Shown: positions 7,003 through 32,819, counted from the stretch's first letter. The stretch: 35,259 bases of DNA from a bacterium (GCA_040757115.1 JBFLYA010000013.1:1-35259), one strand, 5' to 3'. Made by a program: numbers and translations. The notes: generated by a model not told the origin, from the sequence alone.

Positions 7003-7023
7003 TCACTAATTTATATATCTACA

Positions 7024-7052: not shown

Positions 7053-7099
7053 TTTTTTTCTTTCTTTAGGAAGGCAGACAATTTGAAAGCAATTTTTCT

Positions 7100-7328
7100 A
7101 CCTGTGCAGTTAACTTTAGACTTGTGTCCGAAAAGGAGATATATTTAGGAGTTTTTGGTGAAAGGGTTAGGGTTAGCCCCTGATTTAATCAGGGGTTGGT
7201 TTGGTTTAGGGATTATGAAGTTAGTCTTTTTGCACAACCATCCTGACCTAACTCCTGAGCCTGTCAGGAGCAGGCTTACATTTTTAAGGTAAGGGAAAAA
7301 TAATAATCTTAAACCTAACTGCATAGGT
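7100..7328. mobile_element. Third inverted-repeat-bounded non-coding element (MITE-like)
   Basis: ACCTGTGCAGTTA / TAACTGCATAGGT (12/13 inverted repeat). Internal hairpins CCCCTGATTTAATCAGGGG and CTCCTGAGCCTGTCAGGAG. Confidence 0.55.
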
Positions 7329-7357
7329 CGCAATTTTTCAAGTTGCAATCTTCTAAA

Positions 7358-10300
7358 TTATCGCATGACTGCCAATTTACCTGTTTTTGAACTTTTATCA
7401 TCTCTGATGAAATAAATATAGATTCCAGAGGCAACTCTCTCTCCCGCAGAATTATGACAATCCCATTCCACAATCCCATCTCCTCCTGAATCTTCCTCTT
7501 TCTCATAGACTAACTCACCCGCAATGTTGAATATCTTTAAACTGACTCTTGTATTTTGCGGCACGACAAAAAATACCTTCTTGCCTTTAGCCGGATTAGG
7601 ATAGCAGTAAGACTCAGCTACACTATCTAATGCCGACACTTCCTTAATTGGTCCACTACTAACTATCAGGCTATACTCACCTACATTGCCACTATAACTC
7701 TCTTTCTTGCGCATATCAATCAGATTATCTCTATCCTTTAAGTAGAGATAGTATTGGAGTGGCACAGTGGTAATATCCCAACTTATCTCTACTTTCCCTG
7801 GCTCACCTACCTGCTCTACCCTAAATTTCCATTCCTTGTTTGTTTCTACTTCACTGCGATAGTCAGAGCCATATTCACCTTCCGTCGGTGAAATGAAGTA
7901 ACACTTGAGATACGCAGGAGCGAATTCTCCTTCCTCTACTGGTAACATTGGGATTTCAGCAATATCATAGCCATCATCGTAGGTATCGCTTGCCTCAGGG
8001 CTAACGCCAGCAAAGTTAAATCTATCAGTCAGGCTACCCGCCTTAACGGATAGATGAATTGCCCAGCCATCTTTATGCTCAAGTGGGTTAAATTCATCCA
8101 CTTCACTCTCACTACGAACTTCATTATTCACAACCCACTCCTCTATCGGGCAGAAACTCTTCCCCTCTTGAGAGGGGTCAGGGGTGTGTTTCCCACCTAT
8201 CTCCTCTGCTGGAACGAGCATCTCGCAATCCACCGTCACCGGGATAAAATATCCTATCCAAGGACGAATTACCCCAGGATACGGCACCATCTTAAATCCC
8301 GTGCCATCATAATACCATAATGAACTCTTTATCCAGCCATTTACATAAGCCGTCACCGGGTCAACTACCTCTACTCCTTTGCGAAACTTTACCTGCTCAT
8401 TCAAAGCCACCGGGTAAAGATATGGGTGTCCAATATGATTCCACCTTTCAGGCAGACCGCCTTTTAATGGAATAACATAATAACCAGAAGGATTAGTCGA
8501 ACTCCCATAAACAATAATTTCATTATCTTTATCTGCGGTAATCCCATAGCCTATCTCCGGGGCAAAGTTTGGGACAGTTGAATCTGGCGGATTATGAATG
8601 ACCCAATTATTCCCATCAAAATAGACTAATCTGACATTTTGCTCAAAATTACCCCAATTCCACAACACACCTGCGGGGTCAGGATTCCCGGGATGAACAG
8701 GAACAGAGATGGATTTGTAAGTTGGATAGATAGCACCAATTTTACCGGAGCTAACTGTGCCATAAGTAATCGTCGTCCAGATAGTTGATAAAGTGTCATT
8801 CTTGCCATCAGTTGCCCAGATAGCGTAAAGTAACCCTCGCATAGTGACATTAGATGCCGCAATAGTACCTTTGTAAAGGTCATCTCCAATATTAACCATT
8901 TGAGTAAAAGAAATCGTTTTAGTCCCACCTATCTTCCAATAAAGAATTGCCTCATTAACCTTTACATTATCCGTTATAGTAGCTACAACCTCCATTGGCA
9001 ATCCAGCAGGTGCTGAAGGAATAAATTCATGCAAGATAATCGGTGGAATAGTATCTTCTGTTATCACAAAGTAAGAGATACAAACCTCATTGCTTTCTAT
9101 CCCTCTTACTAAAATAGTAGTCGTCCCTGCTGATTGTGTATCAACTGTAAAGGTTACGGAGAAACTACCAGCCTCCATTGAGATACAGGCAGCAATAGTC
9201 CCGGTTGTACCAAAATCTATCCGTATTTGCTCATTAGCTTTATATCCTATACCTTTTACTTCAACTTTACTTCCTACTGTACCACTTGTAGGAGATATCC
9301 AAATTATAGTTCCTTTAATACAAAAATAGACTTTAGTAGATAACCACTTACTTCTGGCAATAACTGTTTTACTCCCAGCAGATTGAGTATCCACAGTAAA
9401 AATAGTCTTAAAAGTACCATTAGCATAACTTGTAGTAAAAGTAATTGATGAAGTGAGTCCAAAATCTATTTCTATAAGTTCTGAAGCAAAATATCCAGTA
9501 CCTGATATAGTAACAATACTACCGATAGAGCTAGAGGTAGGATTTAAGATAATCTCAGGTAAAACAGTAAATATAGCTTTATCCACACAGCCTGCTTTAA
9601 TACTCTTAACAATAATCTTCTTTGGTCCAAATGGTTGTATATCAATACTAAAAGTAGTACAAAATGTACCTAAAGAACTTGCAGTGGTGATAGCAATACT
9701 TGAAGTGATACCAAAATCAATTACTATTGTATCTCTTGCCCCAAAACCATTACCTGCTATAGTTACAATACATCCTACTGTTCCAGAGGTAGGGGAAAGA
9801 TAAACAATATTGCCTGAGATAATAAACTCTGCTTTATCAATCTGGTCTTTATTTATAGCAGTAATAACAGTAGTAGTTCCTTGAGGCTGAGTATCCACAG
9901 TAAAGGTGACCTTAAAAGACCCATTAGATTCAGTATAAGTAGTAACAATACTTTTTGTCATCCCAAAATCAATTCGAAGTTCTGCATTTGAAGAATAACC
10001 ATCCCCTTGTAAAGTTACAACTATTCCAACACTACCAGAAGTAGGAAAGATAGAGTTGATTTTAGGTTTGATAAAGAAAATATCTGTCTTACTTACCATC
10101 GATGTAAGTCCAGTGACTATAATAGAAGTAGTGCCATAAGGTTGCAGATTGGTAGTAAACGAGACAGCAAAAATACCTGATTCATTACTTACAGCAGTAG
10201 CGATAGTCTGGATAGTACCAAAATCAATCCTTATAAACTCATTAGCACCATAGCCTATTCCTCTAATTGTAATCATAGTTCCAACTGTACCACTGACAGG

Positions 10301-13300
10301 ACTAGTCCAGAGCATACCATCTTTGATATAGAAACAAGTAGTGAGTATCAATCCAGACTCACTTCTAACTACAATTGTTTTCATACCATAGGCTTGAGTA
10401 TCCAGTCTAAAGAATGTAGTAAAACTACCATAAGTATCTGTCTTTGCATCAGAGATAGTTTTAGTAGTCCCAAAATCTATCCAGATTAATTCTGATGAAT
10501 AGTATCCATTGCCTTTTACAGTAACTATACTATCTATTTCACCAGAAGTAGGAGTAATTTTAATATTTGGTAAGATAAAGAAACTATTTATATCTTTATC
10601 TATATAATTAACTTCAATACTTCTAACTACTATTGTCTTATCTCCATAAGGTTGAAGATCAACCATAAACTGAGTACTAAATGTCCCAACATAACTTGCA
10701 GTAGTAAGTTCAATTGTCATCGAGGTACCAAAGTCAATACATATTATATCATTTGACCCAAAACCGTTACCTTCTATGTTTACAATACTTCCTACCGTAC
10801 CTAAAATAGGTGAAATATAAGTAATATTGCCTAAGATAATAAATGTAGTTTTATCAACTTCTTCTTTACCTACACCTAAAGTTACTATTGTAGTAGTCCC
10901 GTAGTTTTGAGTATCAATAGTAAATGTAGTTCGAAGTAAACCACTTGACATAACAGTAGTAGTTACAATAGTCAAAGTTTTCCCAAAGTCAATCCGTACC
11001 ATTTTACCTGAAGAATAACCTAGCCCTTTTATCTCTACAATTGTTCCAACTGAAGCAGAAGTAGGTGTAATTGCAATAATCTTTGGTTTAATAAAGAAAG
11101 AAATAGTAGCACTTGAGCCAGTCTTAAGCCCAATAGCACAAATAGATGTACTACCATAAGGTTGTGTATCAATTCTAAAGCTACTAATAAATCTACCCAT
11201 TATATCACTTTCTTCAGTAGCAATAGTTGAAGTTGCCCCAAAATCAATTTGTATAAGTTCACTCTTTCCAAATCCATTACCGAATATAGTAACTTCAGTG
11301 CCAATTGTACCCTTAGTAGGCGTAAGTAAGGTAATATTTGATTTAATAGTAAAGATACCTTTAGATTTTATATTTAACCAATCTTGGACAGCAACTATAG
11401 TAGTCTTACCGTAGGCTTGAGTATTAATAGTAAAGGTAGTAGTAAAAGTGCCATTAACAGAGGTAGAGGTAAGTTGGATACTCGGTATAGTACCAAATTC
11501 TATTCTTATACGCTGAAATGCTACATAGCCATTACCAGCCAATGTTACAATACTACCTATTGTACCTTCTTTAGGAGATATGAGAGTAATATTTGGTTGA
11601 GTTTGAAATCTACTTAATGCACTAATCTCTTCATTTTCATAGGCTATTATACTAATCTCAGCATAAGTCTTGGTATCAATTGTAAAGGTAGTACTAAAAC
11701 TTCCAGTTATATCAGTAGATGTAAGTTGAATAATAGCTGTAGTCCCAAACCTTATCTTTATACTCTGATATGTGCGGTAACCATTACCTGATAGGGTTAC
11801 TATTGTACCTATCGTACCCTTTTTAGGCGAGACTAATGTAATATTTGGCTGGATAAAGAAGTAAGATAAAACAGGATTTGATGAATTGGTACCAATAACT
11901 CTAATGGTAGTACTTCCATAAATCTGAGTATCTATGGTAAATGTAGCCTTAAAATATCCTACATTATTGGCTACTACATTAGTAATACTTTTAGTAGTAC
12001 CAAAATCAATTCTTATTAACTCACTACCAGCAAAACCATCACCTCTTATTGTAATAATACTTCCTATTGTGCCAGTGGTAGGTAAAATAGAAGATATTTT
12101 AGGTAAGACAAAGAAATAATTCATAAATACCTGGTTAGATATAGCTTGAATTGTAACAGTAGTGGTACCATAGCTTTGTGCAGTAGCGGTGAAATAGGTT
12201 AAAAAAGTACCTATCGAAGTTGAGCTACAAACAATAATTGTACTAATATTACCGAAATCTATCACTATTCTTTCTCTTGCTCCAAAGCCATTACCAGATA
12301 CAGTAATAGTCGTTCCTAATGTACCACTTGTAGGTGTTATTAAAGTAATATTTCCTGTGATAAAAATGCAACTAGAGGTACTTACATTAGATATTAAACC
12401 TTTAGCAACAATAGAAGTACTCCCATAAATTTGGGTATCAATAGTAAACATAGCAGTAAATGTACCTAAGATACTACTTGTAGTCAAGGTAATAGTAGAA
12501 CTTATCCCAAAATTAATTATAATTGGCTCAATTGTTTCATACCCTTCACCAGTTACAGTAATTTTAGCCCCTACTGAACCACTTACAGGCGATACTAAAG
12601 TAATCTTTGGTTCTAATGTTCCTATTGTGATGTAGAAATAAGCAATTGTTTTTACACCGCTACTATTCCCTCTTACGACAATAGTTTTTGTCCCTGCTGA
12701 TTGCGTATTTACAGTAAAATTAATACTAAAAGCCCCAACAGAATTGGAATAGGTAGTAGCAATACTTTTAGTCTGCCCAAAAGCTACTAATATCTCTTCA
12801 CTTACTCCATGACCATTGCCTCTAATTGTAACAATAGTACCTATCGAACCAAGAGTAGGTGTAAATTGGGTAATTTGTGGTAAAATAAAGAATTTCTCCA
12901 TAGCAGTCTTATTAGAACTTAATCCAATAGCTATAATAGATGTAGACCCGTAAGGTTGGATATCAACAGTTAAAATGAGTTCAAAATTACCTAAACTATT
13001 ACTTATAGTGGTAGCGATGCTAAGTGTAGTCCCAAAATCAACTCGTATGCCTTCTGATGCATTAAAATTTGCCCCCTCTATACTAACTATACTGCCTACA
13101 CTACCTCTAATAGGAGTAATCAAAGTTATCTTAGTATTTGCTATTTTTACTTTAACCTCTTCTACATTTTCATCTTCACCATCAGTAGCAATTAATTTAA
13201 GTGTGTATATACCATTTGGAATAGTAGTAGTATCCCATGGAGTTAAAGTACCGAGTTCAACAGGTGTATTTGATGTAATAATAGTATTCCAATCTGTGGA

Positions 13301-16300
13301 ACCTTTACTCTCTACATTTTCCTGTCTATATTTTAGGGAATAATAAGATAGTTTTGAAAGTATTACCTCTTTATTTACACTTACATTATCCTTTGCCAAA
13401 CCTATAATTTCAGCTTTACCTTTTAATTGTTGGTCTAAAATAGGAGAGATAATATTAGCCGCAGGAACATCTTTATCAGGATAGTCCATTATACAGATAT
13501 TTGAACTATCGTGTGTTCTTTCATAATTAAGCAATAATTTAGTTCCATCAGGAGATAGGCTAAAATATCCTATTGCATAAATTCCATCAGTATCAATATT
13601 AGTCAATTGAACTAACTCAGCTTCTTTTCCATTATTAACTACTTCCTCTATATTATTAATTATCCACGCGTCATACGGAAATCCAGCAGGAGGGATTCTT
13701 TCTTTCATTAACTCTTTAGATATATTATTTATTTTTGGAAAACGGGGTGGCCAGCCTGTAGTTGACAGAAATGCCAGTTTTTTACCATCTGGTGAGAAAC
13801 CAACAGGAATGTCAAATGCTGGATTATATGTAATTTGCAGTGTAGTAGGTGTAGCATTATTATAAATCACCTCCTGGATATTTGTAATTATGCATATTTC
13901 CCAATTACCAAAGTACCAGTCTAAATCTTCATTTTTTGCATAAGCTAACCATTTACCATCAGGCGACCAGCAGATACCGAGTTCCAATGCATCATCAGTA
14001 TTAGTTATCTGGTGTAATTCTGGATTAGCACCTTCATTAATTATCTCATCTATATTACTTGCTACCCAGACATCGTAATCAGAATAAAATGATAACATCT
14101 TATTATCCGGGGACCACCAACCTGGGTCATTCTCGAAACCACCTGCATCAATCTGAATTAACTCTGGTGAAGTTCCAGTTGCAATTACATCCTGGATATT
14201 AGTTACAAGCCAAATATCCCTCTCAGACTGAAATGCAAGATAACTTCCATCAGGAGAGAATCGAGGATTATAACAACTTTCTTTGCCTACATTTAGTTGT
14301 CTTTGATTATTTCCATCTGAGTCCATTATCCAAATACTTGAAGGCCATGTCCTAAAAGAATGAAATACTATTTGAGTCCCATCAGGTGAAAGACAACTGC
14401 TTAAGTCCATTGCTGAAGTAGTTAATTGATACATATTACTTAAAAAATTAATTTTAATAGTATCTATCTGATTTGAACTAAGCCCTATAGCAGTAATAGT
14501 AACAATTCCACTTACTGAATACCTTGCAGTAAAAACAGAAGAAAAAGTACCTGCTGGGTTACTTATAATAGTGGTAATGCTATGAATAGTTCCAAAATCA
14601 ATTCTTATCATCTCATTTTTACCAAAGCCATTACCTTCTATTGTAACAGGAGTGCCTACACATGGGTTATGAGGATAAACTTTAGTTAGCTGACCTATAA
14701 TACTAAATTTACCCTTAGCCACTAATCCAGAAGTTACCCCAGTAGCCATAATAGTTTTTGTGCCAAAATATTGGGTATCAATAGGAAAAGTAATAGAGAA
14801 AGTCCCTCCAGCACTACAAGTAACTATGTTAATAGTTTTAGTTGTACCAAAATCTATTCTAATTAATTCTGAGGCAACAAAATCCTTTCCTTCAACTGTT
14901 ATTACCGTACCTATCACACCACTATCTGGAGATATTAATGTTATTTTAGAATTTATTACTCTTATTACCACCTCTTCTACCCCTTCATCCTCTCCATCAG
15001 TAGTAGTAAGTTTAATAGTATAGAGTCCATTTTCTAAATCCGATACATCCCAGATAGCTAATGTACCATTATCTACCTGCGTATTGGATGTAACAATTGG
15101 TATCCAGTAATCTGAATTTGTACCCAGACTATACTCGCCAGTGTAAGATAATAATGTAGAAAGTACTGTATTATTAACACTTACATTATCTTTAGCCGTC
15201 CCTTTAATTATAGATTTACCTTTTAATACTTGATTTAGTATAGGTGAAATGATATTAGTTGCCGGGGCAGCTTTTTTATCATAAGGGTAATCCATCTCCC
15301 ATACATCCCAGTTACCAGCACGATAAGACCCAATAAGTATTTTTGTTCCATCTGGAGACCAACTACAGACACCTTCAGTAATCAAGGAAGGGATTAAATG
15401 CTCAAGTTCTAATTCTGCTCCTTTATAAATCACATCCTTTATATTAGTAATCACCCAGCAGTTCCATCTTCCAGGGTGATTATCTTTAGTTGAAGTAAAT
15501 GCATATTTTTCTCCATCTGGTGAAAACACACCATCACAATCATATTCTTTGAAATTTGTCAATTGTAATAACTCTGGCTGGGCATTTTTAAATAACACAT
15601 CCTGAATATTCTTTATCATCCATGCCTCTGGGTCCCCACTTCGAGTAGAATAAAATGATAATACTTTACCATCCGGTGACCAACCACCGGTTACATCCCA
15701 CTCAGGACCAACTAATATATCTTTTATAATAGGAGTAGTATCATGATTTATTACATCCTGGAGATTAATAACCGCCTTAATATCGGCAATAGGATATTCT
15801 ATATTCCAGCAACTAAATGTCATTACATTAGCATCAGGAGAAGAGACAGAAGCAAGTCCTTGTGTACCTACTACCCTAATTTCATCTGGAGGAGTGCCAT
15901 TAATTACCTCTTTAAAATTCTTTATTATATAGATACCCTCTTCAGGTCCTATTTGGTGAGTTTTCAAATACTTGCTATAAACCAACATCTCACCATCAGG
16001 TAAAAAGCCAAGAGGGGTACAATGATATTCCTCATCCTTGATTATCTCCTTTTTATTCTTACCATCTGCATCCATTATCCAGATAGTATATGAGTCATCT
16101 TCAGATTGCCTCGCATAAACTATCATTTTACCATCTGGTGAATAACCTGCTGGACTTTCATTACAGGTATCTGTGGTTAACTGCCTGAGATAAGGTGGAT
16201 TGATTACCTCCTCTACACATACTACTGGTTGATTAGTAATAGGTGTAAGAATTCCTCCTTCTCCCTCTGATTTTATAATAAAGGTATTGGTTCCTAAAGT

Positions 16301-20362: not shown

Positions 20363-20383
20363 CTTTCGTTCCTCTTTATTTAG

Positions 20384-20455
20384 AGGACGCAGATTTTCGC
20401 AGATTATTAGGATTATTATTAGATATATCTTGTAAATCTTGTTCATCTGCGTCCT
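20384..20455. repeat. Palindromic intergenic element
   Basis: AGGACGCAGAT...ATCTGCGTCCT perfect 11-bp inverted repeat with 9-bp periodic inner arms, just upstream of the giant gene SD. Confidence 0.65.
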
Positions 20456-20519
20456 ATTTTCAGATTATTTAGTTGGAGTGGTATAATTTTTTATTTCTAC
20501 TTAATTTCCATCATATTTT

Positions 20520-20589
20520 TTAGTAATCAGATTAAGCGGATTGATCGGATTATTTTTTATCCATTTTATCCGTTAAATCCGTTTACTAA
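20520..20589. repeat. REP-like imperfect palindrome (TTAGTAA...TTACTAA family)
   Basis: TTAGTAATCAGATTAAGCGGATTGATCGGAT...ATCCGTTAAATCCGTTTACTAA; homologs at 25478-25528 and 35062-35132. Confidence 0.7.
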
Positions 20590-23500: not shown

Positions 23501-25434
23501 AAACTACCGGTAAACTTTGCATTCGGGGATTGAAATTGAGTATAAGAGTATGTGCCAGTAGTATAAGCATTAGAGATATAGTCAAGTTGAATATAATCTT
23601 GCCATAACTTTATATAACGCAATTTATACGGTCCATTATAACCTTTACTGTAAATTTCTCTCCCGTCAAATTTAAGTTCTATTGTATGTGTACCTGTTGC
23701 TAATAGTATATTATGAGTATAGCCACAGCTTATATAATTCCCTAAATTATCGTATAAATTTCCATCTATTCTAAATTCCCCTGTTTCTAAAACATTTATT
23801 TCTACATTTATTACTAAATAATTATATCTTTCATCATCATCCGTATCTAAACAATAATCAGTAAAACTACCAGTAAAACTTGCCTCTGGGATTTGAAATT
23901 GAGTATAAGAATATGTACCTGTGGTGTAAGCATTAGAGATATAGTCAAGTTGAGTACCTGTATTTTCATCTCTTATGTAGAGATTTTGTAATTTATATGG
24001 TCCATCATAGCTTTTATCATAAATCTCTCTGCCATCAAATTTAAGCTCTATTGTATGTGTTCCTGGTGATAATGATATATTGGTAAACCCATAGGTTATG
24101 GAATGATTTCCTGAGTTGTCATATAAATTTCCTCTTATCCTGAAATCTCCTGCTTCTATAACATTTACTTCTACATTTACTACCAGGTAATTATACCACT
24201 CATCATTATCTGTATCCAGGCCATAATCAGTAAAACTACCTGTAAAACTTACCTTTGGTGGTTGAAATTGGGTATAGGAGTATGTACCAGTAGTAAATGC
24301 ATCTTGAATGTCATCAAGACAGGTATTACCTTGATATAAATCCAGATTACACAATTTATACGGTCCATCATAGCCTTTATTATAAATCTCTCTACCATCA
24401 AACTTAAGTTCTACTGTATGTGTTCCAGATAATAATGAGATATTGGTATGTACATAGGTTATGGAATGATTCCCTGAGTTGTCATATAAATTTCCTCTTA
24501 TCCTGAAATCTCCTGCTTCTATAACATTTACCTCTGCATTTATTACCAAATAATTATAATATTCATCATCATCTGTATCCAGAGCATAATCAGTAAAACT
24601 ACCAGTAAAACTTGCATCAGGCAGTTGAAATTGTGTATGAGAATATATGCCAGTAGTATAAGCATCTTGAATATCATCAAGATAGGTATTACCTTGATAT
24701 AAATCCAGATTACGCAATTTATACGGTCCATCATAGCCTTTATTATAAATCTCTCTACCATCAAACTTAAGTTCTACTGTATGTGTTCCAGATAATAATG
24801 AGATATTGGTATATACCTGGGTTATGGAATTATTCCCCAAGTTGTCATATAAATTTCCTCTTATCCTGAAATCTCCTGCTTCTATAACATTTACTTCTAC
24901 ATTTACTACCAGGTAATTATACCACTCATCATTATCTGTATCCAGGCCATAATCAGTAAAACTACCAGTAAAACTTGCCTGTGGTGGTTGAAATTGGGTA
25001 TAAGAATATGTACCAGTGGTATAAGCGTGTAGAATGTGATCAAGATGAATATTACCTTGTTCTAATACTATATAATACAATTTATACGGTCCATCATACC
25101 CCTTATTATAAATTTCTCTACCATCAAATTTGACCTCTACACTGTATGTTCCAGGTGATAAAGATATATCAGTATAGGCATGGCTTATATAATCACTTTC
25201 TAAATTATCACATAACCCCCCTTTTATTCTAAATTCTCCAGTTTCTGAAACATTTATTTCTACATTTATTACCAAATAATTATAATATTCATCATCATCA
25301 TCATCTGTATCCAATCCATAATCAGATAGTTTACCAGTAAAATGTGCAGTTATAGTTCCTGCCTCACTATATCCTGAAAGACTTAACCAGATACTTATTA
25401 TTAATATACCTAAAATAATAATTTTCTTTTTCAT
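20590..25434 (-). CDS. Secreted protein with 12 tandem ~121-aa acidic beta-sandwich repeats and a T9SS type A/FlgD-like C-terminal domain
   Basis: Signal peptide MKKKIIILGILIISIWLSLSGYSEA. Unit ASFTGSFTDYxLDTDxDExYNYLV...FDGREIY..GY.GPYKL...YTTGTYSYTQFQ. C-terminus VYPNPF...WDGRNDAGRKVASGVYLY...GKLAIIK. Confidence 0.9.
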   Translation of the reverse strand: MKKKIIILGILIISIWLSLSGYSEAGTITAHFTGKLSDYGLDTDDDDDEYYNYLVINVEINVSETGEFRIKGGLCDNLESDYISHAYTDISLSPGTYSVEVKFDGREIYNKGYDGPYKLYYIVLEQGNIHLDHILHAYTTGTYSYTQFQPPQASFTGSFTDYGLDTDNDEWYNYLVVNVEVNVIEAGDFRIRGNLYDNLGNNSITQVYTNISLLSGTHTVELKFDGREIYNKGYDGPYKLRNLDLYQGNTYLDDIQDAYTTGIYSHTQFQLPDASFTGSFTDYALDTDDDEYYNYLVINAEVNVIEAGDFRIRGNLYDNSGNHSITYVHTNISLLSGTHTVELKFDGREIYNKGYDGPYKLCNLDLYQGNTCLDDIQDAFTTGTYSYTQFQPPKVSFTGSFTDYGLDTDNDEWYNYLVVNVEVNVIEAGDFRIRGNLYDNSGNHSITYGFTNISLSPGTHTIELKFDGREIYDKSYDGPYKLQNLYIRDENTGTQLDYISNAYTTGTYSYTQFQIPEASFTGSFTDYCLDTDDDERYNYLVINVEINVLETGEFRIDGNLYDNLGNYISCGYTHNILLATGTHTIELKFDGREIYSKGYNGPYKLRYIKLWQDYIQLDYISNAYTTGTYSYTQFQSPNAKFTGSFTDYALDTDDDERYNYLVINAEVNVIKAGEFRIEKWLYDNSGSNSITYGFTNISLSPGTHTIELKFDGRRIYDKSYDGPYKLQNLYLRDENTGAQLDYISNAYTTGTYSYTQFQIPEASFTGSFTDYGLDTDNDEWYNYLVVKVEVNVIEAGDFRIRGNLYDNSGNHSITYVYTNISLLSGTHTVELKFDGREIYNRGYDGPYGLRLDLWQSNFHLEYISGYTGTYSYTQFQPPQASFTGSFTDYALDTDDDEYYNYLVINAEVNAIEAGDFRIRGNLYDNSGNHSITYVHTNISLLSGTHTVELKFDGREIYNKGYEGPYKLRNLDLYQGNTCLDDIQDAYTTGIYSHRQFQLPDASFTGSFTDYGLDTDNDEWYNYLVVNVEVNVIEAGDFRIRGKLYDNSGNNSITYVHTNISLLSGTHTVELKFDGREIYNKGYEGPYKLRNLDLYQGNTCLDDIQDAFTTGTYSYTQFQPPEASFTGSFTDYCLDTDDDERYNYLVINVEVNVIEAGDFRIRGNLYDNLGNNSITYVHTNISLLSGTHTVELKFDGREIYNKGYEGPYKLRNLDLYQGNTCLDDIQDAYTTGTYSHTQFQLPDASFTGSFTDYALDTDDDEFYNYLVVNHEINVVNAGEFRISGELWDNSGNSPITSGYTNISLQPGTYTIKFKFNGRKIYNTGYDGPYKVDNVRLCIETIEKEEVEEEVEEEAEEEKVPIPMGLVEIDTLPYPYITGTYSYTQFQIPEVTFSGTPTNDYGLDTDGDGLHNYLVININVKVRKPGEFMIKGLLCEDFKEPPFNVIKYIDIMHKFLSTGTQTIALKIDGKDIYSKGINGPYNLFPLFILIKDDSDWMEVDYSKFVYTTSGSYKYTDFQPLDVPMMQDLNKVCVYPNPFIPSKSKTDVIIFKNLTQDVTLRIFTISGELVFKKEGIDYTYEWDGRNDAGRKVASGVYLYCITNTKGDKCIGKLAIIK
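20880..25347 (-). repeat. ~363-bp coding tandem repeat, 12 units, central units near-identical in DNA
   Basis: Recurring CATAATCAGTAAAACTACC.GTAAAACTT and TTCCTCTTATCCTGAAATCTCCTGCTTCTATA blocks at roughly 354-369 bp spacing. Confidence 0.92.
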
Positions 25435-25477
25435 AGCTCTTCTTTGTAATCGAATTAAACGAATTAAACTAAATTTT

Positions 25478-25528
25478 TTAGTAATCGGATTAAGCGGATT
25501 TATCGAATTATTTTTATCCGTTTACTAA
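25478..25528. repeat. REP-like imperfect palindrome (TTAGTAA...TTACTAA family), shortened copy
   Basis: TTAGTAATCGGATTAAGCGGATTTATCGAATT...ATCCGTTTACTAA, directly after the TAA of the TolB-like gene. Confidence 0.65.
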
Positions 25529-26587
25529 TTATTCTTCCCTTTTAATCTTTTTTACCTTTGGAACTTCTGATTCTTCTTTCGTTAGTGAAGATTTCGTAGA
25601 TTCAACTTGTCGCTTCTCTTTATCTATATCTTCTATTCTGACGATGAAAATATCAGAACCTTCGCCTATCATACCTATAAAGAGTAATTTTTTACTATCA
25701 GTAGACCATGATAGTTCCCGCCATATTTTTGGTACATTCTCAATTTTTCTCAATCCACTTCCATCACTATTTATAAGCCACACCTCTCCACTTCCACCAA
25801 AGATAGCCATTTTTTTATCCGGAGACCATATTAAACCACAACCTGTATTTTCCATAATTAATTTATTTGTTCCATCAGGATTTTTTATCCAAAGGTCTAT
25901 CTTGGGTAATTTTTTCTCTCCAGTAATAACTGGGATTTCCCCTTCTTTTAAAGGAATACCATCTGCTGTAAAATAGAATTTCTGACTTACTGGGAAAGCT
26001 AGTGCTCTCCGAACTTGTTCCATTTCTCTAATCTTACTATGTTTCTCAAAGATAATGGTATGTCCTTCTCCGGGTGCCCAAATTGGTTCGTATTCATCAT
26101 ATGGGTCACCACCTAATACTTCCATCTTTTTTGTATTGACATCTATTACTACACATCTTCCAGGGTCAAACCTATGCCATGAAGTTTGAGCACATAAGAT
26201 TTTAGTATCATCAGGAGACCATTTTGGAAGTCTATAACTCATTATATCGTTAGGCTTAGGAGTAAGACATATTTCTTCTGTCCCATCAACATTCATTATC
26301 CAAAGAGTATCCCTATCTTTCCCTGTTTCTAAAATCCCATTTCTATCTGTATCTTCTCTCAATATATAAGCAATCTTCCTTCCATCATGTGACCAAGTTG
26401 GCTCCATCTTCATAGTTTTAGGGACAGTAGGAGTTATTTGTATAGCTTTTATAGACAACTCACTACTTTCTACTTTCTTAGATCCTTCTCCCATAAACTT
26501 GCTTTTGGCTATACCTACTCCAACAAGAAATAGTACCCCAAGAATAATCAATAATAGATTAATAAAAAATTTATTATTTTTGATCAT
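25529..26587 (-). CDS. Exported or membrane-anchored TolB/PD40-type beta-propeller protein
   Basis: N-terminal hydrophobic segment; PTWSHDGRKIAY, PKWSPDDTKI, PIWAPG, IWSPDKK and SWSTDSKKL repeats. SD GAGGTG favours the ATG at 26587. Confidence 0.82.
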   Translation of the reverse strand: MIKNNKFFINLLLIILGVLFLVGVGIAKSKFMGEGSKKVESSELSIKAIQITPTVPKTMKMEPTWSHDGRKIAYILREDTDRNGILETGKDRDTLWIMNVDGTEEICLTPKPNDIMSYRLPKWSPDDTKILCAQTSWHRFDPGRCVVIDVNTKKMEVLGGDPYDEYEPIWAPGEGHTIIFEKHSKIREMEQVRRALAFPVSQKFYFTADGIPLKEGEIPVITGEKKLPKIDLWIKNPDGTNKLIMENTGCGLIWSPDKKMAIFGGSGEVWLINSDGSGLRKIENVPKIWRELSWSTDSKKLLFIGMIGEGSDIFIVRIEDIDKEKRQVESTKSSLTKEESEVPKVKKIKREE

Positions 26588-26612
26588 TTTGATCACCTCT
26601 CAAAATTTTGTT

Positions 26613-29600
26613 TTAATGATCTTCTAACCATTGAGCTTCACTATAGTTGTATGGTGCATTAGGATATGTCCATGACTTCAGAAGTATATTTAACCTCTGT
26701 TTTATTTGAATTGCATACCTTATCGATTCTTCTGACATTAAATCATCTCTTACAATATACATCCAAGCATAACTCCTTAGTATTTGACCTACTCCTAATT
26801 CTCCTCCGTTATATCCAGCTAATGCCTTAGCTAACAAATCAATATTGTCATCTCCACTGACTTGACAGTAATTAAAAGCAGTATTTAAGCAGGGCACATT
26901 CATATACTGAGCCCCTGCTAATAAATTTCCATCGGGTGCATATAAGTTAGTATTTGCTGGTATATTGCCTAAATTATTATATGCCAAACTATTAAATGGT
27001 TGGATTTGTAAGAATCCTAATGCACCTCTAAAAGATATAGTAATTCTTCTATTCTGCCAGTGAGTGCCACTTGATTCCTGCTCTATCATGCCTCGCAAAA
27101 GTTCCTCTTCATCTGTACTATCAGGTGGAATATCTGTAATAATTCCTTCTGGTAGATTAGTAATATCAGCAGATGCATCCTCTCGCCATTGTGGAAACCG
27201 AGCATCATTTTGTGTAATTGTATTTTCTGCAAAGACATCTAACGCATTTTGAAAGTTATTACGATGATTAAGTAAATTTGTAATCGTATCTGCATTAACC
27301 TGGCTACCAGGTGGATTTAACTGATTTTCTGATAACCAGGTACCTTGATTTGCTCTCTTAAATCTAATCACCTCTTCTCTTGTATGAGGACCATACATAC
27401 CATCTATTTGATTTCCAATAAAATCATAGCATATAAACCTGAGTAAATTCTGCATCCTTTCTACATCATACCCATTTATATTCTCCTGTAAAACTCTACT
27501 TCCACTTCTTCTAACACCTGGATTAGAATACCCATCTGTCGGGTTAGTATCTACTACCGTACTTGTTGCTGGTTCTATACCAGGATACTCTGCTCGAATT
27601 ATTATATCACCTAATTGCCGAGTAGTCCTTATATGTAAGTGTCCTGTTGCTATTCCATTTTGAGTTAGCCCACTGGTTGTTCGTCTTCCTCTAAAATCTC
27701 CATAAGTTTGTCCTTGAACTACTCTAAATGTAACCAAATGATTATTGTCATCTGTATCTATTGGTTCCCCTGCATCTACTATACCATCATTATCAGTATC
27801 TATAATAATCTCTGCCCTTACCTCTGCTTCATGCTCTTCATCTGCTAATAGATATGAGTTTTCATCTGCCTGACCATAATGCCATGGAGTTTGTACCTGA
27901 TTATCTATATCAATTGGTCTTATGATTAATTTTATCAATCTATCCTGTGGTGGTGTAGTGTGACTTACATTTATTGCTAAATTTAGCCTGTCTTCTAAAG
28001 TCTCTGGCTGTTTTACAGGCTCACCCGGTATTACTGTCATCTTTAGATCATAACATCCTTCAGTTGCATACTCATCACTATCCTGTCTATGCCCATCCCA
28101 CCTAAAAAATGGGTTAAAATCTGGAGTTGTCGGCTCTGGCTTGGAGATAATTTCTTTAAAGACTAATTTTTGAGTCTGGGAATTATATATCTCTATTATA
28201 ACACCTCCACAACTATCCTGTAAATAATAAATTATATCTGAATAAGTTGTGGGAACTACATTATAAGGGCTTATATTATTCGGTTCAACCTTTAAAATCT
28301 TGATAAATGGCATCTTTGTGTTAGCCTGTATTTTATATATTGGCTCCACTGGATTTTCATTACCATTTGCATCCTTAGCAGTAATGATGTAATAATAAGT
28401 AGTTCCTGACTCTAATCCAGTATCATTGTAATAATTATGATTTCTATCAGTATTCCAGAATATATTTGTGTAAGGACCATTTGGAGTTTGACTTTTATAA
28501 AGATTGTATCTATCAAAATCAGCCTCAGTACTTCTACTCCAAATCAAATCTATCTCCGTCTCCTTCTCAGTAATATCAGTAACAGTCGGTCTTGCAGGAG
28601 GGGTGGTATCTGGTGGTGGTTCTTCGGTATATGGTGTAGCATAAGATTCATTTGAGGCATCAGTTTCTATGCCAAACTCACTTTCTGCCTTGACATAGTA
28701 ATAGTAAGTAGTATCTGCTATTACATCCGTATCATCATAATAGGTATCTTTGACCAATGATGCAATTTTAGTATAATTTCCTCCTGCTGGCTTGCGATAT
28801 ACATTGTATCCTGCTACTGTATCTATACTCCCTATCCAGCCTAAATAAACTATATTCTCTCCTCCAATAGCAGATAATCCCCACGGTGGCTCTGGTTTAG
28901 TTAAATCCTTTGGTATCTCAGAGTTTATTTGAGATAATTCACTCTCATTACCTGAGGTATCTACTGCGGTTATACCATAATAATATCTTTGTCCTGAAGT
29001 TAATTGATATGCAGTAAATGAGGTATTAGTAATATTATATGCTAACCCATCATATTTATAATAATAACTCTCCTTAGTTGGCGTACCTCTATCTCCTTCA
29101 TAAATATTGTAGTAACTCACATCATTATCAGGTGGTGCGGTCCATGATAGATCAAGTTCACTGCCATTACCTGGATCATTAATCTGTAAATTAGTCGGAG
29201 GAGCAGGAGGGGTGATATCTCCTGGTGATAAAGGAGCAGCAGAAACTACTGAAGAGGCTTCTGATTCATTCCAATAATTATCTATGGCAGTGACTATAAA
29301 ATAATATGGTTTTAATTCAGTTAAGTTACTAAATGTATAATCAGTTATATTCTTATCAACAAAAATACAATAATCAAAATTATAAGGAGTAATATATTCA
29401 TCATCCTTTATATGCACACAATAGTAATTTAAATCTAATTCAGAATTGGGATTCCATGATACTGTAATTTGTAGTACATCTGGTGCAGCCTGTAGTCCGG
29501 TAGGCTTTGATGGAGGTGTAGCATCTAATACTACTACCTGTATAGTATCTGTACCTGGATTACCCGCACCATCCTCTACATATAACTTAGTGGTATATGT

Positions 29601-31538
29601 CCTGGGGTCCCAAAAAGTCCAGTAAACTATCTCTCCTTCTTTATCATAATATCCATCATTTTCAAAGTCCCATTTATATGTTACTATTTCACAATCATCA
29701 TAAGATGCACTACCATCAAACCGGACTGTTTCTTCTTCATATACCCATTTATCATAACCGGCATCTGCTATTGGCGGTTGTCTATCAACTATTATTACTT
29801 GTGGTAAAGTACAGGTCCCCATATTCCCGGCGGCATCTTGAGCCCTGTACCAACAATATTTTTCACCATCTGTATCATAATAGTGTGCAACAGAAGTTGT
29901 TCCAGGAGGAATTTCAAGCCAGGTACCGCCATTACCCCAATAGTCTGCTGTCCAATTTATCCATGTTTTAATCACTCCAACATTATCATCATTCCTTAAA
30001 GTGGCATAAATAGTCCCATCATTATCATACTTAGTATCAGTATCTTTGTCATCCCCTAACTTCATTATCCATGCTTCTGGTAAAGTAGTATCTCTTACTG
30101 TAACTGTTATAATATCGGTATCAGTATTTTCAACATTATCTGTCACCCGCAGTTTTACTTTATATACCCCTGGGTCATCATAAGTATGATAAATAAATGA
30201 AAGCCAACTCCAGTCATCATATTTACCATCATTTTCCCAGTCCCATTCATATTTAGATATGCCAATATTATCTATTGAACCACTGGCACTAAATTCTGTT
30301 GAGGTATCTTCATCTATTTCTTTATCGCCACCTGCATCTGCTGTAGGTGGAGTTTTATCTATGGTGATATAATCATAAGTTTTGTTTTCATTCCCCGCTT
30401 TATCTTGAACTTTGTACCAGCAATATCTTTGACCCTCTCCAATATAAACATACCACTCAGATTTATGTGAAGGTGATATTTCTATCCAGGTACCACCATT
30501 ACCAAATTCATCTGTTGTCCAATTTATCCATGCGTTACTAACCCCAGCTCCATAATCCCAGTTATCTAATGTAGCATATACCCAGCCATCATTATCATAC
30601 AAATTATTCCCACCTTCTTCATCACCTAATACTACACTACAACCTGGCTTAGTATTATCAACTTTAACAGTAATATTCTTTTCTGCATTATTACCAGCCT
30701 TATCTACGGTGATATAAGATATATCATAACTACCATCTGCATAGTTAGTGGTATTCCATGAGTAGCTGGTGGCATATGTATCCACCACACCATTAATAAT
30801 AATGCGATAATCTTCAATTCCAGAGGTAGAATCTTGAGCAGAAAAACTAACTGTAACCTGTCCTGTAAGAATAGCACCATCTTTGGGATTATAATCGGTT
30901 ATCTCAGGAGCAACCGTATCAATCCCACACCAATAACCCGGCTCTGCGTATCCTGACCAATTACCTGCATAATCTTTTGCCTTAAATCTAAAGGCATATT
31001 TATTCCCATGACTACCAGAATACCAAAAATCATAAATAGTATTTTTACAATCTTTATAGTCAATAAGATCATTAATTGCTACTTCTACATCTCCTTCTGC
31101 AACTCCTGATGTCTTATCAGAATACTCAAGGTCAATATAAAGATCGATACTCTTTACCCAGCCTTTAGGGTAATTAATAGAAACTTCAGGTGGAGTAGTA
31201 TCAAGAGTGATAGTATCATCATCAGTCATACTATCTATTGGCTCATCCCACCAAAACCATGCATATACTATTTTATTTCCTTCTCCAGATGACAATGTCC
31301 AGGATTTAGATGTTTCAAAAGGTTCCCACTCACTCCAATCTGAATCCTCATTAGCAAAACACATCCAATCTGCCTTTGGAGTTGTTGATAAGGTAAGAGT
31401 AACATCACGAGAGTTTGTATAGGGAGCATTATTATTTATTACAATTGATCCTGAAACAGCTTTTACCTCAGCAATATTCAGTAAATTCAAGATAATAGAA
31501 ATGGTAGATATGATAAAAGATAACTTCTTAATACCCAT
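26613..31538 (-). CDS. Modular secreted peptidoglycan lytic transglycosylase: Ig-like, 2 PKD, 4 FN3, FlgD-like, PG-binding and SLT domains
   Basis: Signal peptide ending AEVKA. PKD motifs (ADAG.D...F..S.S.D...Y.WD.ENDG). FN3 motifs (P..PT.L...W......Y...Y.V.A.D..GNES). PG-binding motif G.DV..MQ.LL...IDG.YGP.T...V..F. SLT motifs MIEQES, GALGFLQIQP, N..AGAQYM and ALAGYNGG. Confidence 0.87.
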   Translation of the reverse strand: MGIKKLSFIISTISIILNLLNIAEVKAVSGSIVINNNAPYTNSRDVTLTLSTTPKADWMCFANEDSDWSEWEPFETSKSWTLSSGEGNKIVYAWFWWDEPIDSMTDDDTITLDTTPPEVSINYPKGWVKSIDLYIDLEYSDKTSGVAEGDVEVAINDLIDYKDCKNTIYDFWYSGSHGNKYAFRFKAKDYAGNWSGYAEPGYWCGIDTVAPEITDYNPKDGAILTGQVTVSFSAQDSTSGIEDYRIIINGVVDTYATSYSWNTTNYADGSYDISYITVDKAGNNAEKNITVKVDNTKPGCSVVLGDEEGGNNLYDNDGWVYATLDNWDYGAGVSNAWINWTTDEFGNGGTWIEISPSHKSEWYVYIGEGQRYCWYKVQDKAGNENKTYDYITIDKTPPTADAGGDKEIDEDTSTEFSASGSIDNIGISKYEWDWENDGKYDDWSWLSFIYHTYDDPGVYKVKLRVTDNVENTDTDIITVTVRDTTLPEAWIMKLGDDKDTDTKYDNDGTIYATLRNDDNVGVIKTWINWTADYWGNGGTWLEIPPGTTSVAHYYDTDGEKYCWYRAQDAAGNMGTCTLPQVIIVDRQPPIADAGYDKWVYEEETVRFDGSASYDDCEIVTYKWDFENDGYYDKEGEIVYWTFWDPRTYTTKLYVEDGAGNPGTDTIQVVVLDATPPSKPTGLQAAPDVLQITVSWNPNSELDLNYYCVHIKDDEYITPYNFDYCIFVDKNITDYTFSNLTELKPYYFIVTAIDNYWNESEASSVVSAAPLSPGDITPPAPPTNLQINDPGNGSELDLSWTAPPDNDVSYYNIYEGDRGTPTKESYYYKYDGLAYNITNTSFTAYQLTSGQRYYYGITAVDTSGNESELSQINSEIPKDLTKPEPPWGLSAIGGENIVYLGWIGSIDTVAGYNVYRKPAGGNYTKIASLVKDTYYDDTDVIADTTYYYYVKAESEFGIETDASNESYATPYTEEPPPDTTPPARPTVTDITEKETEIDLIWSRSTEADFDRYNLYKSQTPNGPYTNIFWNTDRNHNYYNDTGLESGTTYYYIITAKDANGNENPVEPIYKIQANTKMPFIKILKVEPNNISPYNVVPTTYSDIIYYLQDSCGGVIIEIYNSQTQKLVFKEIISKPEPTTPDFNPFFRWDGHRQDSDEYATEGCYDLKMTVIPGEPVKQPETLEDRLNLAINVSHTTPPQDRLIKLIIRPIDIDNQVQTPWHYGQADENSYLLADEEHEAEVRAEIIIDTDNDGIVDAGEPIDTDDNNHLVTFRVVQGQTYGDFRGRRTTSGLTQNGIATGHLHIRTTRQLGDIIIRAEYPGIEPATSTVVDTNPTDGYSNPGVRRSGSRVLQENINGYDVERMQNLLRFICYDFIGNQIDGMYGPHTREEVIRFKRANQGTWLSENQLNPPGSQVNADTITNLLNHRNNFQNALDVFAENTITQNDARFPQWREDASADITNLPEGIITDIPPDSTDEEELLRGMIEQESSGTHWQNRRITISFRGALGFLQIQPFNSLAYNNLGNIPANTNLYAPDGNLLAGAQYMNVPCLNTAFNYCQVSGDDNIDLLAKALAGYNGGELGVGQILRSYAWMYIVRDDLMSEESIRYAIQIKQRLNILLKSWTYPNAPYNYSEAQWLEDH

Positions 31539-31563
31539 TTTACCCCTTCTTTTCGCTTACTGA

Positions 31564-32406
31564 TTATTTTAATACCCCTAATTCCTTTTTAACCTTAGTC
31601 ATCTCCTTAGCCGCTTTATCTAATACAGGTGAACTTCGAGAATCCATTAATTCTTCAAGCACTTTCAGTGCCTCCTGCAATTTCCCTTCTTCTTTTAACT
31701 CAAGTGCCTTATCAAACAATTTTTGTTGGTGTTGAAGTATTTTTTCATGCCACTCTTTGTATATTTGTTTCCTTTTCTCATCAGATATTTTGAAATGAGG
31801 AAGGGGTTTAGGCTCTGGTTTAGGTGTAAGTATTCTTTTTATCTTTTTAATAGCCATTTCTGCCTCTTTTGCTAATTTACTATCTGCTTGGGCAGTATCT
31901 ACTACCTCCTGAAAACACGCTAATGCCTCTTTAAAGTTTCTTTCACGATAATATTTAATCCCTGAATTAAATTGATAATTTGGGTAATATTCTTTAGGTA
32001 TTTCAATCTTAGGAGTCGGTTTAGGTTGAGATAATAAAGCATTTTTTCTTTTTTCTTCATTAATCTTATCAATCATATATTTAGCTTGATTAGATGCTTT
32101 AGTATCTGGATATTTTTTGATAATTGATTCAAAAATTTGTATAGCCTCATCGTATTTTTTTTGATTAGCAAATTTTATGCCGTTGACCAGTTCTATTTCT
32201 GGCAATGGATTTATTTTGGATTTTGAATCTGGGATTTGTTTAAGATGGTCTTTTAGTTCTTCAGTTCCTGTTTTTTTTAGTTTTCCTTTATCCATCATCA
32301 CTTCCTTTTCATCTATACTTAACAATTTATCTTTTTCTGCCCAGGTTATATTAAAGCAAGTAATCAAAGTTAGTATTAAAACTAAAACAATAATTTTTTT
32401 AGTCAT
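31564..32406 (-). CDS. Exported TPR-repeat protein (BamD/CpoB-like helical repeats with Pro-rich linkers)
   Basis: Signal peptide ending TWA; KYDEAIQIFESIIKKYPDT, NFKEALACFQEVV and KLQEALKVLEEL blocks; SD GGAGGTG. Confidence 0.8.
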   Translation of the reverse strand: MTKKIIVLVLILTLITCFNITWAEKDKLLSIDEKEVMMDKGKLKKTGTEELKDHLKQIPDSKSKINPLPEIELVNGIKFANQKKYDEAIQIFESIIKKYPDTKASNQAKYMIDKINEEKRKNALLSQPKPTPKIEIPKEYYPNYQFNSGIKYYRERNFKEALACFQEVVDTAQADSKLAKEAEMAIKKIKRILTPKPEPKPLPHFKISDEKRKQIYKEWHEKILQHQQKLFDKALELKEEGKLQEALKVLEELMDSRSSPVLDKAAKEMTKVKKELGVLK

Positions 32407-32460
32407 TTTTTTTCACCTCCATGATTTAGTTTTAGTACACGGATTTATCGGTGGTGTCTT

Positions 32461-32489
32461 AATCTAGCATAAAGGTTGAAATAGTGTAA
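32461..32489 (-). promoter_or_regulatory. Possible promoter for the secreted-protein block
   Basis: Minus strand TTACAC-17 bp-TAGATT with an extended -10 TG; weak match. Confidence 0.3.
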
Positions 32490-32577
32490 GAAAAGGAGAT
32501 ATGGGGATTATGGAGATTAGGAGATAAATTCATTCTAAAATTTTGCAAAGGACTATGAATAATCTCCATCTCTCCCT

Positions 32578-32819
32578 GTAACCATTCAGCCACAGAGGCA
32601 CAGAGTTCACAGAGAATTAGAGAAATTAGCCACAAATGGACACGAATTAACCTGTGACATTCGATAAATGTAATGCGAACCTTTAGGTTCGCTTTCCTGC
32701 TTGCCAGAAGCGAGGCTAAAGCCTCGCACTACAAATCTTTTTATTATTCGTGTTCATTCGTGGTTATATATTCGCTCTGTGTTCTCTGTGACTCTGTGGC
32801 TATATCCCTGAACGGTTAC
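32578..32819. mobile_element. MITE type B with 8-bp target-site duplication
   Basis: Ends GTAACCATTCAG / CTGAACGGTTAC; CTCTCCCT duplicated at 32570-32577 and 32820-32827; reverse complement of 6647-6885. Confidence 0.88.

Follow-up and report, generated by a model that had tools for sequence, protein, structure and literature searches.

What is a 25-kb run of genes for exported proteins doing between fliY and fliO, two flagellar genes that stand side by side in most related genomes? The question is raised by the stretch of DNA analysed here (the window, 35259 nucleotides), which is one whole contig (C35) of the 462-contig, 4.3-Mb metagenome-assembled genome G000, from an uncultured bacterium of groundwater. 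All genes of interest in it are on the minus strand, in an order that begins with a methyltransferase gene and fliY, and the interval between fliY and fliO is occupied by five co-directional open reading frames (ORFs; window 7358-32406). At the level of the contig, this block interrupts an ancestrally adjacent fliY-fliO pair; by the sequence comparisons given below, two congeneric species carry the island at intergenic sites that differ. Taking the picture as a whole, we consider it probable that the block is an accessory, relocatable cell-surface island and not a flagellar one; as to its function, we are less confident. The features on which the argument turns are as follows.

33046-34065, minus strand: fliY, upstream boundary gene; flagellar switch protein with a CheC-like N-terminus and a FliN C-terminus.
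32407-33045, no strand: right spacer (fliY to TPR gene), almost wholly nested dispersed repeats.
31564-32406, minus strand: TPR protein, 280 residues; signal peptide, weakly YbgF/CpoB-like.
26613-31538, minus strand: stalked SLT protein (a lytic transglycosylase), 1641 residues; signal peptide, Ig-type stalk, PG_binding_1-like segment, C-terminal SLT domain.
25529-26596, minus strand: propeller, 355 residues; PD40/TolB-like beta-propeller with an N-terminal hydrophobic anchor or signal.
20590-25434, minus strand: 12-repeat protein (rep12), 1614 residues; signal peptide, 12 beta-sandwich repeats, type IX C-terminal sorting domain (CTD).
7358-20446, minus strand: giant, 4362 residues from the first ATG, 4334 from Met29.
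6587-7357, no strand: left spacer (giant to fliO); a low-copy repeat, a unique stretch, and the miniature inverted-repeat transposable element (MITE) MITE-C with a nested MITE-A.
5999-6586, minus strand: fliO, downstream boundary gene; PF04347, 54.6 bits (cut-off 22).

The block and its sites in two species of one genus

The neighbourhood of fliY was compared in 20 relatives, among them the congener G001 (a sister species) and two members of the same family, G002 and G003. In 15 of the 20, fliY and fliO are adjacent, the gap ranging from an overlap to 530 bp (two of five genomes in the same family, all six in the sister family and seven of nine in other families), and in G012 only a fliN-like gene stands between them; the expectation that the two are normally neighbours was thereby upheld. 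The order fliO-Maf-methyltransferase-plsY-gpsA is conserved in G002, G003, G004 and G005. The whole run from methyltransferase and fliY through fliO, Maf, methyltransferase and plsY to gpsA is contiguous in G004; G005 has the same order without the second methyltransferase gene, its contig ending just upstream of fliY. Since the pair is adjacent in most relatives, we take adjacency to be the ancestral state and the 25-kb block to be an insertion.

The pair is broken in four other genomes. In G001, fliY is followed by deaminase, GatC and aminotransferase genes; in G002, a divergent QueT gene precedes fliO; in G003, a STAND-NTPase/FGE gene stands before fliO and a radical-SAM gene after fliY; in G019, the two genes are on separate contigs. 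The comparison points to fliY|fliO as a recurrent breakpoint within this MITE-rich family. The preliminary description had named in advance, as a finding that would count against its reading, unlinked fliY and fliO in relatives lacking the block, and such is indeed the state of G002 and G003, although most relatives keep the two contiguous.

Of the boundary genes, fliY matches its families (NF005995, 309.3 bits for a cut-off of 218; PF01052, E = 1.2e-25) and has 98.5% amino-acid identity to its counterpart in G001; fliO, above the cut-off for PF04347, scores 55.0 bits for TIGR03500 against a cut-off of 55.25. In the window, fliO is followed by a Maf/PseD-like gene, a second methyltransferase gene, plsY and gpsA, as identified with Pfam and NCBIfam. 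The family as a whole does not have fliPQR after fliO; the conserved run there consists of the Maf/PseD-like flagellin-modification gene, the methyltransferase gene, plsY and gpsA (window 1038-6586; loci L032, L033, L076 and L077). A separate observation concerns G001, where two caspase-domain (Peptidase_C14) genes, one fused to DUF7379, lie upstream of the methyltransferase-fliY pair (contig C734, 8783-12038; L031).

A copy of the block exists in G001, on contig C24; it comprises four of the five gene families, and its order of TPR, stalk, SLT domain, propeller and giant is that of G000. There it sits between a gene for a hypothetical protein of 535 amino acids (hyp535) and rluB: hyp535 and cobT are upstream of the TPR gene, which begins about 300 bp downstream of hyp535, and on contig C211 of G001 the start of an rluB-like pseudouridine synthase gene follows the stop codon of the giant by about 20 bp. 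This hyp535-rluB site is uninterrupted (0-570 bp) in G002, G003 and G004, which represent three outgroup genera, and in G000 itself (contig C434); G005 gave no match at it. By these comparisons, each of the two species has the block at one site and the empty version of the other. The proposal that the block was inserted as a unit is therefore sustained for the gene order, which recurs in G001, and not for the place, which there is not fliY|fliO.

The sequence shared by G000 and G001 extends from about 28 bp before the ATG of the TPR gene to about 20 bp after the stop codon of the giant. Its divergence differs from that of the surroundings: nucleotide identity between the two genomes is 97.1-99.5% for ten flanking genes and 87.8-94.3% for the four cassette genes, and identity at four-fold sites is 90.5-99.3% and 77.9-88.7%, respectively, with the reservation that the giant's divergence may be inflated by mis-pairing of repeats. 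We infer that the island was moved or exchanged as a unit, by a recombination route that would use no gene inside the block.

The two copies are not identical in content. In G001 the SLT domain is in a separate, apparently broken frame of 204 amino acids, which is preceded by two stop codons and a short signal-like peptide; interposed genes encode YycI/PepSY-like domains; and directly upstream of the giant, in place of rep12, are a secretin gene (PF00263, 125.9 bits) and a gene for an S8 subtilase (179 bits; C24, 12763-15476; L067). The secretin paralogues of G000 are elsewhere in its genome and only 25-31% identical to the G001 secretin. On the same contig, 15582-16577 and 16590-17330 contain, respectively, the propeller gene with one in-frame TGA and the SLT frame behind its two stop codons; these stops could reflect either decay of the block or sequence errors. 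Searches of 25 genomes of the phylum for orthologues of the propeller and of the SLT module gave them, apart from G000, in G001 alone and in none of the other 23. Most of these 23 have fliY. A flagellar role of the block is rejected, on such comparative grounds, because it lies at a non-flagellar site in G001 and because its specific genes were not found in these 23 genomes.

Spacers, mobile repeats and signs of mobility

The spacers on either side of the block, 639 bp between fliY and the TPR gene and 771 bp between the giant and fliO, had been described as repeat-dense. Both are, but so, equally, is almost every intergenic spacer in the window. In the right spacer a MITE-A (32578-32820) lies inside another element, whose halves are at about 32443-32577 and 32821-32906, and a further repeat occupies 32914-33008; copy depth in the genome is 26-113 across 32432-33031. 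The left spacer consists of a low-copy repeat (7087-7357), a unique stretch (7037-7086) and a MITE-C (6601-7002) in which a MITE-A is nested (6647-6886). Upstream of fliO, G000 and G001 are homologous as far as 7002. A promoter scan found a perfect TTGACA-17-TATAAT on the minus strand (7052-7024, 12 of 12 matches), next to the one stretch of this spacer that is not repeated; this candidate promoter could drive fliO-Maf after the interruption.

MITE-A is 243 bp long, has the terminal inverted repeats GTAACCGTTCAG, is flanked by a target-site duplication of 8 bp and is often nested in other MITEs. It gives 105 BLAST hits in G000 (about 105-133), of which 16 are full length, and at least 9 of these 16 have, by inspection of their flanks, an exact 8-bp flank duplication. 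The copies at 6647-6886 and 32578-32820 form an inverted pair that brackets the block, an arrangement that suggests a composite transposon bounded by inverted 243-bp repeats. We rejected this candidate: the element is genome-wide, and each of the two copies has its own flank duplication, the exact 8-bp CTCTCCCT for the right copy and GAATTTT for the left one. Homologous recombination between the two copies as the origin of the joint was rejected likewise, each copy having kept its own duplication. Because of these matching flanks, the two copies are independent insertions, and neither recombination joints nor the ends of a cassette. As to MITE-C at 6601-7002 as a breakpoint, its flank duplication is intact neither in G000 nor in G001. 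MITE-C belongs to a related family with the ends GTAACTATTCAGCC, for which an 8-bp duplication was seen in 18 of 90 candidate pairs.

Of the 4,317,218 bases of the genome, 385,954 (8.9%) belong to short repeats that have 10 or more further copies; for repeats with 30 or more, the share is 5.3%. Stretches of dispersed repeats in the window are at 850-1030, 2724-3049, 5724-5772, 6601-7003, 32443-33008 and 34995-35259. One of them, a high-copy segment in the interval between plsY and the methyltransferase gene, includes two 138-nt direct copies that are 100% identical and 143 nt apart (2722-2859 and 2865-3002). Genomes of the genus measure 4.3-4.7 Mb, against 2.4-2.9 Mb in sister genera.

The block does not have the attributes of a self-mobile element (transposon, integrative and conjugative element or integron cassette). 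No recombinase was found in it, Pfam giving no hit in any other ORF of at least 100 amino acids; no tRNA gene was found, and the G001 junctions revealed no shared terminal repeat or flank duplication. Foreign composition was also considered and discarded: the GC content of 34.6%, against 36.8% for the genome, is undercut by 16% of 25-kb windows, and the tetranucleotide distance is no outlier. A defence system was likewise rejected: PADLOC returned no system match and a single weak PD-T4-6 hit (32.6 bits), to the NHL region of the giant. The block resembles genomic islands and composite transposons in being a discrete multi-gene unit found at different sites in close relatives, with empty sites kept and a divergence unlike that of the core genome; it differs from them in having no integrase, transposase or tRNA target and no foreign composition, and from composite transposons in that its flanking MITE-A copies are independent insertions with their own duplications.

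The five exported proteins

The five genes are separated, in order, by 25, 16, 94 and 143 bp. As read from the translations, each of the five proteins begins with a basic n-region followed by a hydrophobic stretch of 12-20 residues, and all five N-termini look like Sec signals or anchors. A Pfam and NCBIfam scan agrees with every domain label given earlier to the block genes. The initial observation of five co-oriented genes between fliY and fliO, all with an N-terminal signal or anchor, was thus confirmed from ORFs, Pfam and translations.

Two of the proteins, the giant and rep12, have the organization of type IX cargo. In the giant, the signal peptide is followed by an NHL propeller, a FlgD-Ig domain, at least 20 Ig-like repeats (with a unit of about 85 residues by motif count), PD40 propellers, an unannotated region and a CTD. 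Pfam searches with the whole protein and with slices of it gave E = 3.8e-33 for NHL and 7.6e-32 for PD40, the two PD40 propellers being at about residues 1436-1697 and 2020-2298, and the CTD (residues 4282-4359) matches Por_Secre_tail with 36.2 bits (cut-off 27). The unannotated C-terminal stretch, of about 450 residues, had a best score of 0.87 against the ESM Atlas, which is a lead only. The orthologue in G001 is 91% identical over 3784 amino acids. In rep12, motif counting gives 12 units of about 121 residues, which appear in the DNA as a 363-nt unit present 11 times and a further, divergent copy, and the repeats match DUF4785_3rd (E = 1.7e-89). Two repeats folded without an alignment gave an all-beta model with a pLDDT of 55.9, too poor for a structure search. 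The CTD of rep12 matches CHU_C (29.1 bits, cut-off 27), TIGR04183 (24.1 bits, cut-off 23) and the PorZ C-terminal family (58.5 bits); it is homologous to that of the giant, with 40% identity. In both proteins the CTD is at the extreme C-terminus, and the translations show a Sec signal at the N-terminus.

By sequence similarity, the giant and rep12 are members of a large repertoire of CTD proteins in this genome. Paralogous repeats of the giant are found on 41 other contigs, the CTD-protein family is found on 29 contigs, and G000 has at least 39 Por_Secre_tail matches, many of them in open frames of 1000-4300 amino acids. Still longer frames with CTD-like ends were noted on contigs C211 and C79 of G000 (8268 and 9835 amino acids), beside others on C367 and C424 (4285 and 4092). 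Components of the type IX secretion system are harder to recognize. An SprA-like frame of 2011 amino acids matches in three pieces (106, 53 and 49 bits, cut-off 200). There are 40 PorV-like matched stretches, in about 25 frames of about 300 amino acids, with a best score of 94 bits (cut-off 250), and several of these frames lie directly beside CTD genes. PorU-like candidates reach up to 121 bits (cut-off 420). For GldK, only weak FGE-type matches were obtained in G000, which control genomes gave as well; for GldM there was no match in G000, but the GldM control also matched nowhere.

SprB of Flavobacterium johnsoniae is a giant surface adhesin exported by type IX secretion, with a C-terminal sorting domain. 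The block proteins resemble such adhesins by the N-terminal Sec signal, the very long Ig-like arrays and the type-A CTD of 70-90 residues, and G000 resembles their hosts in having many cargo proteins of this kind together with SprA-, PorV- and PorU-like genes. Unlike the known cases, the host is flagellated and comes from a small uncultured phylum, its machinery matches are all under the cut-offs with no GldKLMN motor found, and the cargo genes share their block with those for a TPR protein, a stalked lytic transglycosylase and a propeller. Going by their domains, the giant and rep12 most likely cross the outer membrane and stay attached to it by their C-termini, as adhesin-like surface fibrils with propeller heads. 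The repeat domain of rep12 has a precedent of another kind, DUF4785_3rd being known from NttD, a type II substrate of Legionella (PMC6617341).

The stalked SLT protein has about 1200 residues of Big_7, PKD and fn3 domains (Pfam), a PG_binding_1-like segment (residues 1356-1398) that at 18.5 bits is under the cut-off of 23, and an SLT domain of the family-1 lytic transglycosylases (PF01464; residues 1476-1588) with 23.2 bits for a cut-off of 21.3. Its C-terminal 342 residues were used as a query, the SLT module, in whose numbering 1299 must be added to obtain full-length positions. Eight residues are invariant in the 17 aligned sequences: E189 (i.e. E1488), S203, G206, A207, G209, Q212, Y277 and N278. 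They fall in what we take to be the motifs of family 1, a catalytic Glu followed by Ser, G-x-x-Q and Y-N-x-G. The AF2 model of the module (pLDDT 77.5 overall, above 90 over the domain) has an all-helical, lysozyme-like fold, and its top Foldseek matches in the PDB are all lytic transglycosylases, namely MltC (E = 1.1e-3), MltE (TM 0.55-0.59 to the target) and Slt70, none of them reaching E ≤ 0.001. Because the catalytic motifs are invariant and the best PDB matches of the model are lytic transglycosylases without exception, the enzyme is probably active.

By its relatives, the SLT module belongs to a rare subfamily, in which PG_binding_1 or SH3_3 domains are paired with SLT. In a search of 1.84 billion sequences, E ≤ 0.001 was reached by 112 representatives and E ≤ 1e-10 by 17; 10 of 12 relatives that were scanned match SLT at E ≤ 0.001, with 19.9-45.9 bits. 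No other protein of 902-2872 amino acids among 5.8 billion has the C-terminus of the SLT protein, and one Ig-rich protein of 2348 amino acids matches the module weakly (E = 2.7e-4). A scan of metagenome contigs gave 12 loci, of which four encode closer relatives, on contigs of 1.3-4.9 kb; on these short contigs, L081 and L084 included, neither TPR nor propeller genes were seen as neighbours.

Specialized lytic transglycosylases are encoded with several envelope-spanning machines, as exemplified by FlgJ/SltF, VirB1 and EtgA. The block enzyme is like them in its family-1 fold with the catalytic Glu-Ser motif and in having as neighbours genes for very large products that have to pass through the wall; it is unlike them in its stalk and PG_binding_1-like segment, in belonging to a rare subfamily and in that its position beside flagellar genes is not conserved. 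SagA, the autolysin of the Brucella type IV secretion system, is another such enzyme (PMC8334348).

The two smaller proteins recall Tol-Pal components at the level of repeats only. The TPR protein matches TPR_2 (E = 7.9e-10) and TPR_6 (E = 7.8e-8), and its TIGR02795 (YbgF) score of 36.1 bits is under the cut-off of 90; its orthologue in G001 is 82% identical, and the search of 5.8 billion proteins found five further relatives with 51-71% identity, on metagenome contigs of 1.2-2.2 kb. The propeller has 22.2 bits for PD40 (cut-off 20.9) and, for TolB (TIGR02800), 49.9 bits, far under the cut-off of 343. Its sole orthologue is in G001 (79% identity), the runner-up match being 27% identical; first scans of genome contigs and metagenome contigs gave no locus with the propeller gene, and BLASTP gave no match between it and the propellers of the giant at E ≤ 1e-3. 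Neither SLT nor TPR nor propeller protein has a C-terminal sorting domain recognizable by Pfam or NCBIfam. A secreted PD40 propeller encoded close to a secreted TPR protein with YbgF-type repeats, and the pair beside a peptidoglycan-binding protein, is a combination shared with Tol-Pal (TolB, CpoB/YbgF). Unlike in Tol-Pal, the propeller (355 amino acids with its anchor) has no TolB N-terminal domain, and Pfam scans found no TolQ, TolR, TolA or Pal in the window. The assignment to Tol-Pal was negative, as neither protein matches at the equivalog level.

Alternative explanations and what the block may mean

In the picture that we hold to be probable, that of an accessory surface island, the TPR, SLT and propeller proteins would be exported by Sec and would most likely act in the producer's own periplasm and cell wall; there they may provide local wall remodelling or envelope tethering that accompanies the export of very large surface proteins. 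Several observations weigh against this picture. A stalk of about 1200 residues is hard to fit in a periplasm. The type IX set is incomplete, with SprA, PorV and PorU matches all under their curated cut-offs and no GldKLMN motor found. The contents of the block differ, with rep12 in G000 and subtilase, secretin and YycI/PepSY-like genes in G001, which weakens the case for a functional coupling of the five genes. Neither a recombinase or tRNA gene nor a cassette-specific terminal repeat or target duplication was found. fliY|fliO is broken also in G001, G002 and G003, and the position of the block could reflect a rearrangement hotspot instead of a targeted insertion. Finally, public contigs of the sequencing run that holds the locus best do not bridge 32478-32991.

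This last point leads to the question of whether the block is between fliY and fliO in the cell at all, or whether the contig is chimeric inside its repeat arrays, which we regard as very improbable. The linkage of the block to the two genes rests on the original assembly and on indirect arguments. The junctions were checked in three runs of one groundwater study, in assembled contigs only: in the best run, one public contig covers 31500-32477 and the next starts at 32992, with short high-depth repeat unitigs between them. Public contigs thus stop at both edges of the right array, and at both junctions there are about 400-570 bp of nested elements with copy numbers of 60-190; in addition, the closest relative, G001, joins fliY to other genes, and the G000 contig equivalent to the genes that follow fliY there (C133) ends in a partial MITE. 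A random misjoin, however, would have had to hit, at both junctions and with the right orientation, the two halves of a single ancestral locus. The duplications on either side of each MITE-A copy match, a sign that the assembly came out of the very genomic copy into which it had gone; within the length of a read from the giant's stop codon, the sequence already departs from that at the G001 junction; the empty rluB site is crossed by another G000 contig, C434; and unitig depth is similar on both sides, at 287 towards the cassette and 309 towards fliY. In another reading the five genes share no function, being unrelated genes for secreted proteins in a permissive, MITE-laden hotspot that owe their apparent unity to short-distance co-inheritance. 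The different gene content of the only two known copies, the large paralogous families (on 41 and 29 contigs) behind the giant and the CTD protein, the recurrence of the fliY|fliO breakpoint in the family and the SLT-module relatives at L081 and L084 without TPR or propeller neighbours would fit this idea, which we nevertheless find unlikely: the first three genes lie close together, with 25 and 16 bp between them, TPR, stalk, SLT, propeller and giant follow one another in this order at two chromosomal sites, and what moved is bounded by the first ribosome-binding region and the last stop codon. These same limits suggest another possibility, to which we give little credence as well, namely a cargo-only mobile cassette, a 25-kb operon-like, recombinase-less unit moving between the MITE-colonized spacers of related genomes; trimmed to its first ribosome-binding region and last stop codon, it might represent, with a similarly low probability, a way in which MITE-saturated genomes shuffle surface-protein operons, here splitting a flagellar pair.

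A more dramatic role would be that of an antagonistic or predatory apparatus, in which the giant and rep12 bind a foreign cell and the Ig-stalked lytic transglycosylase, delivered outside, cuts the peptidoglycan of the target. The enzyme domain has, by alignment, intact catalytic motifs, and its protein also contains a long Ig/PKD/fn3 array and a peptidoglycan-binding segment; SH3_3 wall-binding domains occur in relatives of the module; in the G001 copy, genes for a secretin and a subtilase immediately precede the giant; and the same logic has been proposed for giant genes of Omnitrophota beside type II-like secretion loci (10.1101/2023.11.21.568195). Yet we judge it a distinctly poor prospect for the block. 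The SLT protein has neither a sorting tail nor an evident outer-membrane route, and the G000 block has no secretin; the fusion of stalk and SLT is not conserved, the domain being in a separate frame behind two stops in G001; no immunity-like gene is evident; and no orthologues were found outside the genus. The fixed five-protein apparatus of the preliminary description, with a muralytic head that attacks foreign peptidoglycan, found no support: its enzyme has no sorting domain, the SLT of G001 stands apart and rep12 is replaced there.

The same description had recognized no such combination among described systems, but an analogue had already been published (10.1101/2023.11.21.568195). In that preprint, giant genes of Omnitrophota with SLT domains, beside secretion loci, were proposed to serve adhesion to prey and digestion of its wall, a function that is itself a hypothesis there. 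What the block has in common with these 'Archaeovorins' is giant secreted proteins, some of the published ones having SLT-type and TPR domains, and a conserved secretion-related neighbourhood, to which the secretin directly upstream of the giant in G001 may be compared; the published idea of adhesion plus wall digestion is also that of the predatory reading. The differences are of size (1.6-4.4 thousand amino acids in the block against tens of thousands), of export (a type IX CTD here, a type II-like system there), of arrangement (the SLT domain being on a separate protein here) and of phylum. A literature search revealed nothing that combines a type IX CTD giant with a stalked SLT protein, the supplements of the preprint, which possibly hold related loci, being outside its scope. 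The block is a combination of known kinds: type IX giant adhesin loci, specialized lytic transglycosylases and genomic islands.

The idea of a new wall-attacking weapon wired into a flagellar locus therefore gives way to a testable one, that of a surface-protein island at differing sites, with a silent-site divergence 2-4 times that of its surroundings, in a host genome about 9% of which consists of short mobile repeats. If confirmed, it would offer a natural setting in which to study the relocation or exchange of large surface-protein operons in uncultured bacteria, and would show how a flagellar operon tolerates an interruption of 26 kb. The activity and location of the stalked lytic transglycosylase would also bear on the published but as yet unproven suggestion that groundwater bacteria digest the walls of other cells by means of giant secreted proteins.

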